Source of the DNA: Ostreococcus lucimarinus
Lineage: Eukaryota
Length of the DNA: 64,000 nt
Reading direction: 5' to 3' (one strand)
NCBI GenBank assembly: GCA_000092065.1
Contig: CP000588.1
A program made the translations under genes and the position numbers. Shown in pieces: positions 21,739 to 30,514 of this stretch (positions are counted from its first letter, which is position 1; the number at the start of each line of letters is the position of its first letter). The notes below the pieces were generated by a model, which saw only the letters and a list, made by a program, of their open reading frames with translations, was not told the DNA's origin and made no database searches.

Positions 21739-22955
21739 ATGACTTCGCCGATTCTCGTGCCGGGCGCGCACGGAGGAGAGTCCGCGAACGCGATGGACGG
21801 CGCGACGTCGCCGCCGCAACTCGGCGCGCCGCGAGAGGTTTGCCGCGATTTTTTAAAGGTGGGTCGTCTTGAGTCGTGACTCGTCGTTTTCGCGAAAAGA
21901 CCCTTTCGAGCTCGAGCGAGAAAACGGTCGATCTGGCGATCGATCGACGCGAATCGAGCGATGTGGTCGTGAAGATACTGACGATGGTGTGCGCGCTTCG
22001 CTTCGCGACGCAGGGAGCGTGTTTCCGGGAGAATTGTCGATACGCGCACGACGCGGCGGAGGGCGCGGCGGTGCCGACGCAGACGACGCAACCGGTTTGC
22101 AGAGACTATCAAAACGGTCGATGCTTCCGAGCTTCGTGCAGGTTTTATCACGGTTCCAACGCTGAGCAAGTAGCGGTGCAGCTTGGCGCGGGTAATCGAA
22201 TGTTCCCTGGATCCATCAACGGCGCGCAAGGGATGTACGGCGCCGCCACTGGCGACTTGTTGCACAACAAGAATCCGCAGTTGCACATGATGAACAGGAC
22301 GATGAATCTTCCCATGAACATGGTGGGCAACCCCGATCCCGCGGCTTTGCTTGGCGCCGACGCGAGTACTGCGGCTTTACTCGGAGGCAATTTGAGCTTG
22401 GAACAAGCGCTGTTTTTGCAAACGGCGATGGCAAACGGGACGGCGTACGATAATAACGCCGCGCTCACCGCCGTGGCCATGGCAAACGAGATTCTCCGAA
22501 GAAACGCCGCTGGACAGCAAGCACCGAACGGTAATTACGATATGAGCTCGATGTACGCGCAGCAAATGGCGACGGTGGTTGCGCAGCAGCAAGCGGCACT
22601 CGCACAGCAAATGGCTGCGGCGAATGGTCAATTGACAAACGGCGGCTTCGCCCCTCTCAACAACGGAGAGAAATTGTCGAAAGATGCCGGTGTTGGCGGT
22701 GCGTACCAACAAGCAGTTGCAGCAGCGAGCGCAGCGATGAACAATCCATCTGCCCCCGGTGAGCAATTTTCTTGGACTGGGATCGAATACGCCACAAACG
22801 GAGTCCACCAACAAAATCAATTTAAGCCAGTCGACTCCATCGCCGCGCTTCCGGATTCATTAGTCGACAATGATCTCTTTGGATTTGTCAACTCGGAAAT
22901 GTCAAACGCAGCCGCCGCGTTTGTTCCTGGATCTGCTTTGGGGAACCTCCAATGA
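21739..22955 (+). CDS. Tandem CCCH zinc-finger protein with two exons: 21739..21858 and 22014..22955.
   Basis: Exon 1 is MTSPILVPGAHGG...REVCRDFLK, followed by a GTGGGT donor. The intron has an ACTGAC branch point and an ACGCAG acceptor. Exon 2 is GACFRENCRYAH, completing a C-x7-C-x5-C-x3-H finger across the intron. A second finger (CRDYQNGRCFRASCRFYH) follows, then a Q/A/N-rich low-complexity tail. Confidence 0.7.
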
Positions 22956-28899: not shown

Positions 28900-29071
28900 A
28901 GCGCGATAGAAATTGATGATTAATTTGTAATGACTACGAGCGATGATTATTTGATTGGTATCTTGCTGAAACTTCGAGTTCGCGCGCGGCTAGATGGACT
29001 GATGACAAAAATCGAGGTCGAACTACTCACCGCCGGTTTAGTCGTCCGGTGTACATCTTTCGCAAAGAGGT

Positions 29072-29088
29072 GGTGTTAAATGAACACC
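29072..29088 (-). promoter_or_regulatory. Predicted 3' UTR hairpin of the H2A mRNA (GGUGUU-CAUUU-AACACC), a candidate histone 3'-end stem-loop.
   Basis: It is a perfect 6-bp inverted repeat with a 5-nt loop, about 100 nt downstream of the H2A stop on the minus strand. It is nearly identical to the hairpin downstream of H2B. Confidence 0.45.
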
Positions 29089-29185
29089 ATGTTTTTTTGT
29101 GAAACACGGCGAGAGCCCGATAATCGTGCCGGGCTTTTTTCGCTATGATCTATTTTTGAAAGCCTAAAGTAACGATTTAAACCGT

Positions 29186-29551
29186 TTACTTCTTGGACTT
29201 CTTCGGCAACAAGACCGAGTGGATGTTCGGGAGAACACCACCGGCCGCGATCGTGACGGTGCCGAGGAGCTTGGAAAGCTCTTCGTCGTTGCGGATCGCG
29301 AGTTGGATGTGGCGCGGCACGATGCGCGACTTCTTGTTGTCGCGGGACGCGTTGCCGGCGAGTTCAAGCACTTCCGCGGCCAAGTATTCGAGCACGGCGG
29401 CCAAGTAGACCGGCGCACCGGCACCGACGCGCGTGGCGTACTTGCCAGCCTTCAAGTAGCGGGCAACACGGCCAACCGGGAATTGCAAGCCCGCCTTGGC
29501 GGATCGGCTCGTCGCCTTCTTGCCAGTCTTTCCTTTACCTCGTCCGGACAT
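29186..29551 (-). CDS. H2A: Histone H2A.
   Basis: The translation [68 protein letters not shown]...[13 protein letters not shown]...LLPKK covers the full length of the H2A family. It is intronless. Confidence 0.95.
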
Positions 29552-29919
29552 CGTGAGTTGTTTGTATTCGCGTGATGGAATGACGCCGGGGCAGACGCCA
29601 ACCGTCGCGACGACGAAAATTTCGCGAAAATCGACTCATCGCCTCACGCGATGTCGCCGTCGCGAGCCAATCAAAACGCGAGTGTACCCGGGGTACATTT
29701 CTAAAACGACCGATCATGATTCAAAATCGTGCGCGCAATTTCTTCATTTACACGTAATCTCGCGATTTGATTGGCTAAAAACGCGAGAGTCACTCCATTT
29801 GACGAGTCATGACCCCTAGATTGTGCACGAAAAATGCGTGAGTCGATTTCGCGAAATCGGCGCTCGTGCGCGCGCGACGACGGCGGCCGGCGTCATTCCA
29901 CGACACGAATACATTCAAA
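29552..29919. promoter_or_regulatory. Shared bidirectional H2A/H2B promoter with mirror-symmetric elements.
   Basis: aaaatttcgcgaaaatcgactca at 29617..29640 and its reverse complement tgagtcgatttcgcgaaatcgg at 29838..29860 are TTTCGCGAAA palindromes resembling E2F sites. A CCAAT box (gagccaatcaaaacgcgag) lies at 29664..29682 and an inverted CCAAT (gatttgattggctaaaaacgcgag) at 29765..29788. The symmetry centre of the TTTCGCGAAA palindrome pair (about 29740) falls at the midpoint between the two ATGs (29735). Confidence 0.5.
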
Positions 29920-30258
29920 ATGGCCAAGAAGCCCGCGCAAAAGAAGCCCTCGGGCGCCAAGAAGGTTGGACGCAAGTCCAAGTCCGAAACCTACAAGATC
30001 TACATCTACAAGGTCTTGAAGCAAGTGCACCCGGACACCGGTATCTCCTCCAAGGCGATGTCCATCATGAACTCGTTCATCAACGACATCTTCGAGAAGA
30101 TCGCCACGGAAGCCGCCAAGCTCGCGCGATACAACAAGAAGCCGACGGTCACGTCCCGCGAAATCCAAACCGCGGTCCGATTGATCTTGCCGGGTGAACT
30201 CGCCAAGCACGCCGTCTCCGAAGGCACCAAGGCCGTCACCAAGTTCACCTCCGCGTAA
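29920..30258 (+). CDS. H2B: Histone H2B.
   Basis: [112 protein letters not shown]. The start is taken at the internal ATG at 29920 rather than the upstream GTG. Confidence 0.95.
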
Positions 30259-30350
30259 GCGTTTTGAACTGGGACGTCTGTCACACTTAGAAATCAAAAA
30301 AAACCAAAATCATAGACCGCTTCTCGACCGAGAGTCTGTCTTTAAACATT

Positions 30351-30366
30351 TGGTGTTCATTAACAC
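30351..30366 (+). promoter_or_regulatory. Predicted 3' UTR hairpin of the H2B mRNA (GGUGUU-CAUU-AACACC), a candidate histone 3'-end stem-loop.
   Basis: It is a perfect 6-bp stem with a 4-nt loop about 95 nt after the H2B stop. It has the same stem sequence as the hairpin downstream of H2A. Confidence 0.45.
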
Positions 30367-30514
30367 CACCTCTGAGCGAAAGATCCGTGCCTACATAAAA
30401 CTAAACCGCTTCACCGCGCCAAAGTAAACAATTTGGCGACGCGTTTGAATTCAAAATATCCGCCCCGAGTCGCGCGCACTGCCCTATGTAAGTGTTACAT
30501 GTCTTCTACGTTGT

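Follow-up and report, generated by a model that had tools for sequence, protein, structure and literature searches.

The histone H2A and H2B genes of Ostreococcus lucimarinus diverge from a 368-bp spacer in which the same short motifs appear twice, in mirrored order. This raises the question of whether the spacer is one symmetric regulatory module that serves both genes, or two promoters placed back to back. The original prediction, made from the letters of the sequence, favoured a single symmetric module, with paired E2F-like palindromes and paired CCAAT boxes driving co-expression of both genes in S phase. Ostreococcus is well suited to reading a complete promoter, because its intergenic regions are tiny, its transcription factors are few (fewer than 200; PMC2850359), many sibling lineages have been sequenced and O. 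tauri is transformable. We analysed the spacer within a 64-kb stretch of contig CP000588.1 (the window) and compared it with related loci of other lineages.

Results

A divergent H2A/H2B pair

The H2A gene (29186-29551, minus strand, 121 amino acids) and the H2B gene (29920-30258, plus strand, 112 amino acids) are separated by the spacer at 29552-29919. Both are in the list of open reading frames, and their identities were established by tblastn (100% for H2A), by the Pfam families assigned to the gene calls (PF00125 and PF16211, both for H2A) and by exact matches to O. lucimarinus CCE9901 entries (XP_001419342 for H2A; XP_001419128 and XP_001420602 for H2B). Their head-to-head orientation and short common spacer make them a divergent histone pair, and the related pairs all show the same arrangement. 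Exact-protein look-ups and one metagenome scan together gave 167 loci. Numerous marine metagenomes contain the locus type of the window, kinesin-H2A-H2B-Sec24-like, and the spacer there shows 2-6 differences. By tblastn, the 64-kb window holds no further histone genes. Among its other proteins, a CCCH zinc-finger protein (21984-22955) is an exact match to an O. lucimarinus CCE9901 entry, the Sec24-like neighbour is not identical to the NCBI copy, and the gene-call look-up returned no record for a protein of 1207 amino acids and little for one of 838 amino acids. From the protein matches, the window belongs to O. lucimarinus or to a strain very near to it.

Mirror symmetry of the spacer

Each side of the spacer carries, in mirrored order, the CCAAT motif AGCCAATCAAA, a composite of TGAGTCGA and TTTCGCGAAA, a gap of 37 nt and the leader GCGTCATTCCA. 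When the H2A half was reverse-complemented and aligned with the H2B half, the score was 102.5, against 43.3±7.0 in 1,000 dinucleotide shuffles (z=8.5; none of the 1,000 scored as high), whereas the same two halves in direct orientation gave z=1.5. The mirrored motif set had been predicted, and the symmetry proved to reach further than was claimed. Indeed, three collinear blocks, each read towards its own ATG, are common to both halves: TTTGATTGGCT; GCG(A)TGAGTCGAT(T)TTCGCGAAAT; and CCGGCGTCATTCCA..AC.CGAATACA. Between these blocks the H2A-side and H2B-side sequences are unrelated.

The mirrored order of elements for both genes is also evident from three inverted repeats obtained by repeat search. 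I1 (29558-29589 / 29887-29918; 32 nt, 84%) lies directly upstream of both ATGs, I3 (23 nt, 87%) has the mirrored arms AGCCAATCAAAACGCGAG... and ...CTCGCGATTTGATTGGCT, and I17 is the perfect inverted repeat AAATCGACTCA / TGAGTCGATTT. Two others, I2 and I4, have arms that are 1.25 kb apart and lie 3′ of both stop codons. The symmetry centre computed from the palindromes and leaders is 29738 and the midpoint of the two ATGs is 29735.5, in keeping with the predicted coincidence of the two (about 29740 and 29735). The centre of the CCAAT pair, 29720.5, is offset by 17 nt because the GAGTC box region sits on the H2B side only; the H2B side has an extra 36 nt, which contain GAGTCACTCCATTTGACGAGTCATGAC. 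The distance from the palindrome to CATTCC is 37, 37, 36, 37 and 37 nt in five promoters (of the window, a paralog and a sister lineage), and this gap is constant even though the stretch that it spans on the H2A side is not related to the one on the H2B side.

CCAAT boxes, GAGTC box and leaders

The CCAAT box of the H2A side, AGCCAATCAAA (29665-29675, plus strand), lies at −116 from the H2A ATG and that of the H2B side (29766-29776, minus strand; TTTGATTGGCT on the plus strand) at −150 from the H2B ATG. Both are part of I3, with pentamers at 29667-29671 (plus strand) and 29770-29774 (as ATTGG). The CCAAT flank consensus of NF-Y is RRCCAATSR, and AGCCAATCA, which occurs twice in the window, both times in this spacer, agrees with it on both sides. 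The H2A-side box is conserved in orthologs from three other Ostreococcus lineages (L013, L022, L027), and the H2B-side box in the orthologs and in a paralog. In a survey of 52 distinct Mamiellales histone promoter clusters, each scored for at least one copy of a motif and set against a background per 200 nt, CCAAT was present in 36 (background 0.24). The CCAAT boxes are thus conserved across related lineages, which speaks in favour of the original reading. Each box had also been noted as followed by the same sequence, and on the plus strand AAAACGCGAG does stand 3′ of each, at 29673-29682 and at 29778-29787. The two copies form a direct and not a mirrored repeat; the mirrored partner of CCAATCAAAACGCGAG (29667-29682), within I3, is CTCGCGATTTGATTGG (29759-29774).

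Next to the H2A-side box is a palindrome, TGTACCCGGGGTACA (29683-29697), which is unique in the window and is represented by TGTACCCCGGGTACA or a close variant in the three orthologs. The GAGTC box region of the H2B side, GAGTCACTCCATTTGACGAGTCATGAC (29787-29813, plus strand), is conserved in the paralog L003 and reads GAGTCCCGACTC in the sister lineage; its pattern, GAGTC-NN-GAC(TC), was found in 9 of the 52 clusters (GAGTCnnGAC; background 0.017). Closest to the genes are the two arms of I1. The H2A leader block (29558-29589, minus strand; CCGGCGTCATTCCATCACGCGAATACAAACAA on the gene strand) is conserved in the sister lineage and other species, and its TCATTCC fits an initiator-like pattern, which points to a putative transcription start region. 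The H2B leader block, CCGGCGTCATTCCACGACACGAATACATTCAA (29887-29918, plus strand), is conserved across species and would likewise hold the putative transcription start site and 5′ untranslated region.

The palindromes and their flanks

The H2A-side palindrome TTTCGCGAAA occupies 29620-29629, −78 to −69 from the H2A ATG, and is unchanged in the sister lineage, where its flanks have diverged. It is joined by a flank at 29630-29650 (minus strand), which belongs to I17 and is invariant as a block in the sister lineage; the flank reads TGAGTCGAT on the gene strand (29630-29638) and, on the plus strand, ATCGACTCA followed by CGCCTCACGCG (29640-29650). TGAGTC and CCTCACGCG recur in other Mamiellales histone promoters, TGAGTC in 19 of the 52 clusters (background 0.067). 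The H2B-side composite (29839-29859, plus strand) consists of TGAGTCGA (29839-29846) and then TTTCGCGAAA (29847-29856; −73 to −64 from the H2B ATG). It is invariant in the sister lineage and present in the paralog L003, and it includes a perfect 16-bp palindrome, CGATTTCGCGAAATCG, at 29844-29859. As predicted, the two palindromes with their flanks are reverse complements; the composites, TTTCGCGAAAATCGACTCA and TTTCGCGAAATCGACTCA, differ by a 1-nt indel (one extra A/T).

TTTCGCGAAA is rare: the window holds three copies against 0.53 expected, a number reached in 1 of 100 shuffles. The palindromes are, therefore, not merely a motif that occurs at similar density in random intergenic DNA, the alternative that had been raised against them. 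Among the 52 promoter clusters, TTTCGCGAAA was found in three, all of the O. lucimarinus clade (background 0.007), and 15 of the 20 sites in 789 kb of Mamiellales histone-gene surroundings lie in H2A/H2B spacers of that clade. The flank TGAGTCGA(T), 8-9 nt long, accompanies every histone copy.

The third copy in the window, at 21888, follows a TGAGTCGTGACTC palindrome. The annotated ATG of the CCCH zinc-finger gene comes 96 nt after it, and we considered this copy as a promoter element of that gene. However, the gene structure derived from orthologs of two other lineages places it in intron 1: exon 1 is 21793-21858 (ATG at 21793, ending in AAG, ...EVCRDFLK), the intron is 21859-22013 (GT..AG), and the annotated start at 21984 falls within it. 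A GAGTCGTGACTCGT box just 3′ of the 5′ splice site is kept in the orthologs, and the position of the palindrome reads TTTTCGTGGCAAG. By comparison with these orthologs, the 21888 site is thus intronic, unconserved and again lineage-specific.

Old and young parts of the promoter

The palindromes had been expected to be conserved in related spacers, and their absence from orthologous histone spacers had been named beforehand as an outcome that would refute the prediction. We compared the orthologous Sec24-type spacers of three other Ostreococcus lineages (L013, L027, L022; 452-455 bp) and the paralogous spacers of four more (L011, L024, L021 and O. tauri L020), and found no TTTCGCGAAA, CGCGAAA or TTTSSCGC in any of the seven. 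Alignment of the orthologs shows what is kept instead: GAGCCAATCA, the TGTACCCNGGGTACA palindrome, TTTGATTGGCT, GTCATGA and the leader GCGTCATTCC..AACACGAATACA. In the orthologs of other species the position of the palindrome is taken by GCGCGTTTTCGCC. Besides O. lucimarinus, both palindromes were found only in the sister lineage (L063/L104/L107), which is not the conservation expected of an E2F-DP site. On this comparison, the palindromes are a clade-specific addition of O. lucimarinus and one close sister lineage; the CCAAT box, the GAGTC-type box and the leader are old conserved parts of the promoter, and the TGAGTCGA-TTTCGCGAAA composite is young.

In the sister lineage, the H2A and H2B coding sequences each differ from those of the window by 2 nt, and the spacer is identical at 323 of 368 positions. 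All 45 changed columns lie outside the two palindrome blocks (29617-29651 and 29836-29867). By our own arithmetic, zero changes in these 67 nt has P of about 2×10−4 under a uniform rate; this is a weak test, and the footprint is of limited power, because the two spacers are only about 12% diverged. The composite appears to be constrained in both sequence and spacing.

O. lucimarinus has a second H2A/H2B pair (L003, L005, L010), with a spacer of 512 bp, flanked by genes for a hydroxyethylthiazole kinase (PF02110, HK) and an AMP-binding enzyme. Its H2B side has ATTGGCT, the GAGTC box, TGAGTCGATTTCGCGAAA at −74, the leader CATTCCACGAC and the 3′ stem-loop described below, whereas its H2A side is without the composite, the leader and the stem-loop, and has two canonical GCGCGAAA sites, at −29 and −94. 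The two H2B genes differ by 2 of 339 nt, against 17-28 nt for the H2B orthologs in other species, which indicates recent gene conversion of H2B; the H2A paralogs differ by 31 of 366 nt. The L003 H2B copy is, therefore, not independent evidence. The H2B paralog promoters have diverged, with indels, except in the motif blocks.

The halves of the spacer are thus separable, since L003 retains an intact H2B half beside an H2A half that is without the counterpart elements, and the H2B half would accordingly function as a unit in the absence of its mirror image. The proposal of a single symmetric cis-module is supported in that the elements are mirrored at matching distances from the two ATGs, and is not supported in that the paralog keeps an H2B half without an H2A half. 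This one natural "deletion" argues for independence of the halves. At the level of sequence, the comparisons demonstrate the anatomy of the spacer, its spacing, its pattern of conservation and the separability of its halves.

Are the palindromes E2F sites?

The palindromes had been called E2F-like on the strength of TTTSSCGC. This E2F-DP consensus has no match in the spacer (29552-29919). TTTCGCGA agrees with it at 7 of 8 positions on either strand and fails at the last. TTTSSCGC occurs in the window at chance level (37 found, 33.9 expected), and its non-coding matches adjoin genes for DnaJ/CS, seryl-tRNA synthetase and FAD synthetase, which are not S-phase genes. It is not enriched in histone promoters either (3 of 52 clusters; background 0.080). 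The related CGCGAAA is depleted in the window (36 found against 57 expected, 11 of the 36 non-coding) and is weakly over-represented among the histone promoter clusters (9 of 52; background 0.091). The cluster counts thus single out the CCAAT and GAGTC boxes, not E2F sites, as the family-wide histone elements.

Known E2F sites, for example TTTCGCGCGAAA, the SELEX site TTTGGCGCCAAA and the DHFR site TTTCGCGCCAAA, have a GC core of 6 bp. The palindromic ones among them (DHFR and SELEX) share with TTTCGCGAAA the succession of T-run, GC core and A-run, near the start of a TATA-less, S-phase-type promoter. In TTTCGCGAAA, however, the core is CGCG, 4 bp and not 6 bp, and both TTTSSCGC half-sites are therefore broken at the last position. 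Three other classes of site were considered and rejected: a heat-shock element (TTCnnGAA) would have only two correctly spaced units, the CAMTA CGCG box (VCGCGB) fails at the T that precedes CGCG, and the CDE/CHR motif (TTYGAA) is absent. Judging from its palindromic form, TTTCGCGAAA may be bound by a dimeric factor. Of the factors that can be named, E2F-DP is the best candidate, but a candidate only, because known E2F sites have a GC core that is longer by 2 bp, and we would put it forward as a tentative and somewhat doubtful assignment.

Several observations make a role for E2F worth considering. The Rb-E2F pathway is present in Ostreococcus, and the cyclin B promoter of O. tauri has been proposed to contain an E2F motif (PMC2873908). 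E2F activates a human H2A gene (Oswald 1996, as cited in PMC1794435). Canonical GCGCGAAA occurs at −77, near the position of the palindrome, in the H2B promoter of a third lineage (L014/L017), at −146 beside a GAGTC box in the H3 promoter of L110, which may be the O. lucimarinus H3 locus, and twice upstream of the L003 H2A gene. Together with the general E2F-site shape of the palindrome and the weak excess of CGCGAAA in histone promoters, these findings speak for the original idea that the palindromes are E2F-DP sites that combine with the two CCAAT boxes into a single symmetric module, active in both directions, which turns both genes on together in S phase. We nevertheless regard this idea as unlikely: the half-sites are off consensus and the core is short, TTTSSCGC is at chance level in the window and next to unrelated genes, the palindromes are missing from all orthologous spacers except those of the closest lineage, the L003 H2B half exists without its H2A half, and the third TTTCGCGAAA of the window lies in an intron where it is not conserved. 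It is more improbable still that the palindromes are functionless parts of a short promoter segment that gene conversion or an inverted duplication spread from one histone promoter to another in an O. lucimarinus ancestor, and that has persisted since; gene conversion is indeed active at the H2B paralogs, the motif is limited to one clade and the same 8-9-nt flank travels with every histone copy, but the H2A and H2B sides resemble each other only in short blocks of about 24 nt, separated by unrelated sequence and with the 37-nt gap kept, both blocks are invariant in the sister lineage where adjacent sequence has changed, and the H2B paralog promoters have diverged except in the motif blocks.

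The histone 3′ stem-loop

Both genes are followed by a stem-loop element in the region of I2 and I4. The H2A element (29055-29096, minus strand), about 100 nt past the stop codon, reads GGTGTT-CATTT-AACACC, ACC, then GAAAGAT, and the H2B element (30344-30384, plus strand), about 95 nt past the stop codon, reads GGTGTT-CATT-AACACC, ACC, then GAAAGAT. Across the loci, all four core histone genes are followed by a predicted hairpin that has a 6-bp stem and a short loop and runs into ACC(A), with compensatory changes in the stem. A search of 2.5 kb with the Rfam histone stem-loop model RF00032 gave no match at E≤10; when 76 nt were searched the model aligned in register on the H2B element, with 11.7 bits, below its gathering score of 34. 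In O. lucimarinus, the 3′ stem-loop and the palindrome composite are found at exactly the same three genes.

The element is a family-wide, non-canonical histone 3′ stem-loop. GGTGTT-CATT(Y)-AACACC with ACC, followed 4-12 nt later by (G/A)AAAGAT, lies 63-180 nt past core histone stop codons in 113 of 128 instances (H2A 30, H2B 38, H3 17 and H4 28 in the scanned contigs). The stem comes in three variants: GGTGTT/AACACC, GGAAAG/CTTTCC and GAAGAT/ATCTTC. Bathycoccus-like loci have GGAAAG-TATT-CTTTCC-ACCA and GAAGAT-TCTT-ATCTTC-ACCA, with compensatory stems. The H3 genes of O. lucimarinus are ABO96363 and ABO98797. The H3 protein is identical across species, and its look-up returned Bathycoccus-like loci (GC 0.45) and an Ostreococcus-like one, L159 (GC 0.56). 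The scan of viral contigs for the stem-loop found nothing. Green algae are known to have both SLBP and histone stem-loops (PMC13130582); neither Ostreococcus nor Micromonas is named in that paper.

Discussion

We conclude that the spacer probably consists of two back-to-back copies of the lineage's replication-dependent histone promoter, not of one indivisible symmetric module. As we picture it, each gene would use the same kit. Reading towards the ATG, this would begin with an NF-Y-type CCAAT box (AGCCAATCA), probably bound by NF-Y, continue with the TGAGTC-type half-site TGAGTCGA joined to TTTCGCGAAA at about −75, and lead over the fixed 37-nt gap to the initiator-like leader GCGTCATTCCA, about 27 nt before the ATG. 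The composite occupies the position held by GCGCGTTTTCGCC in sibling species. Past the stop codon of each gene, the histone-type stem-loop would serve mRNA end formation, and the histone mRNAs would end just after AACACCACC(A). The mirror image would arise because each of the two divergent genes needs the same elements, equally far from its start. Both genes may, however, use parts of the central region, such as either CCAAT box. We infer the function of the promoter blocks from their conservation; the position of the transcription start sites, the identity of the factors and the S-phase timing are inferred as well, and co-expression of H2A and H2B in S phase is plausible from general histone biology.

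The composite could be a newly evolved, clade-specific S-phase element that took the place of an ancestral TTTTCGCC-type element in three histone promoters, with the distance to the start site exactly preserved. It would be bound by E2F-DP, on a core that at 4 bp is unusually short, or by a different factor that is dimeric. We offer this as speculation that we would sooner expect to fail than to hold. If true, it would be a datable case of cis-regulatory turnover within one genus, and in a genus with the transformable O. tauri. In the literature searched, we came upon no earlier account of TTTCGCGAAA as an element of algae.

The architecture itself has close counterparts. Many histone promoters are bidirectional; those of one species resemble each other more than those of one histone family do, and their motifs turn over heavily and fast (PMC1794435). 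The bidirectional H2A-H2B promoters of animals (human, chicken), with their CCAAT, Oct-1 and E2F elements, are likewise head-to-head, with a spacer of a few hundred base pairs and duplicated or mirrored elements, CCAAT boxes among them; CCAAT and E2F are known human histone elements, and E2F has been implicated at H2A (PMC1794435, citing Oswald et al. 1996). In contrast to these, the Ostreococcus spacer has no TATA box or octamer, its putative E2F-like site is off consensus, and it carries two elements specific to this group of algae, the GAGTC-NN-GAC(TC) box and the GCGTCATTCCA leader. In yeast, HTA1-HTB1 (Spt10 UAS, NEG element, SBF input) is also a divergent H2A/H2B pair with a central regulatory region, and sites of the CGCGAAA type serve there as targets of a G1/S factor; PMC3429914 gives attttcgcgaaaat as a motif of a group of yeast genes linked to SWI4, SWI6 and MBP1. 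However, SBF/MBF and Spt10 are fungal factors, Spt10 being confined to Ascomycota (PMC1794435), and yeast histone genes have no CCAAT box (PMC1794435, Table 1). They are also not known to have a 3′ stem-loop.

Chlamydomonas and Volvox, like Ostreococcus, have divergent core histone pairs with short spacers and 3′ palindromes. Green-algal divergent histone pairs reportedly have animal-like 3′ stem-loops instead of poly(A) signals, as Fabry et al. 1995 and Mueller et al. 1990 are said to have described. The latter is among the works cited in PMC13130582. The promoter motifs of Chlamydomonas and Volvox differ from those found here, and the Mamiellales stem is GGUGUU/AACACC, with mostly a 5-nt loop, and scores below the RF00032 threshold.

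The H2A/H2B spacer is thus a compact, fully parsed example of a histone promoter, in which conserved parts, namely the CCAAT box, the GAGTC box, the leader and the 3′ stem-loop, are combined with one young part at a fixed position. In architecture it follows the design already known from bidirectional histone promoters, with a turnover of motifs that is specific to the lineage, and it is not a new type of regulatory system; it shows, within one genus, the turnover of histone motifs that has been described across kingdoms (PMC1794435).

Sequence conservation between the histone pairs

The two O. lucimarinus H2B paralogues, one in the window (29920-30258) and one in the second pair, next to the hydroxyethylthiazole kinase gene (PF02110; L003, 3001-3339), differ at only 2 of 339 nt. 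Because the H2A paralogues differ at 31 of 366 nt and the H2B orthologues of other species at 17-28 nt, this near identity points to a recent gene conversion that would have affected only the H2B gene together with a portion of the H2B promoter. In a separate observation, the NCBI protein MAK94764.1 (P0137), assigned to a metagenome-assembled genome of a 'Euryarchaeota archaeon', is an Ostreococcus H2B sequence, and its source looks like a mis-binned eukaryotic contig.

Promoter elements

A 15-bp palindrome, TGTACCCGGGGTACA, adjoins the H2A-side CCAAT box (29683-29697). It occurs once within the window, and three other lineages of Ostreococcus retain it with variation at its central base. We also noted an H3 promoter at a related locus (L110, 714-859), possibly of the O. 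lucimarinus clade, in which ATGCGCGAAACGCGGAAATCGCGCAT adjoins CATTTGACGAGTCGTGAAC. This promoter carries CGATGAGAAATCGCC in place of the CGATGAGTCGATTTCGCGAAAAATCGCC of the H2B paralogue, reading as if the palindrome core were absent.

The GAGTCGTGACTCGT box of histone H3 promoters (L050) is also found in the CCCH zinc-finger gene XP_001419125, directly 3′ of the 5′ splice site, and is kept there in two orthologues (L163 and L165). The true start of this gene is probably 21793. In the revised model (21793-22013) a 66-nt exon 1 is followed by a 155-nt intron (21859-22013), and the annotated ATG, at 21984, lies inside that intron.

A histone 3′ stem-loop

Histone genes across the family share a 3′ element composed of a GGTGTT-CATT(Y)-AACACC stem-loop, then ACC, then a purine-rich AAAGAT. 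In the window it lies at 29055-29096 (minus strand) and 30344-30384 (plus strand), with further instances in loci L032-L151. On Ostreococcus/Micromonas-like contigs the element is positioned 63-180 nt past the stop codons of H2A, H2B, H3 and H4, and Bathycoccus-like loci have the compensatory stems GGAAAG/CTTTCC and GAAGAT/ATCTTC. A second conserved tract of the H2B 3′ UTR, AAAAAAAACCAAAA (30296-30312), is located 5′ of the stem-loop, ~40-60 nt past the stop codon, in several lineages (H2B 3′ UTRs of L003, L013, L020, L014 and L019).

The H2A of the PF02110-flanked pair (L003, 2123-2488; equivalents in L011, L024, L021 and L020) is without the stem-loop, the initiator-like GCGTCATTCCA leader and the promoter palindrome composite in all of these lineages. 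The O. lucimarinus gene has two canonical GCGCGAAA in place of this set. The PF02110-flanked H2A may be a differently regulated copy, possibly polyadenylated.

Against the Rfam histone 3′ stem-loop model (RF00032), the stem-loop scored 11.7 bits, under the threshold of 34, and would therefore be overlooked by searches built on that model.
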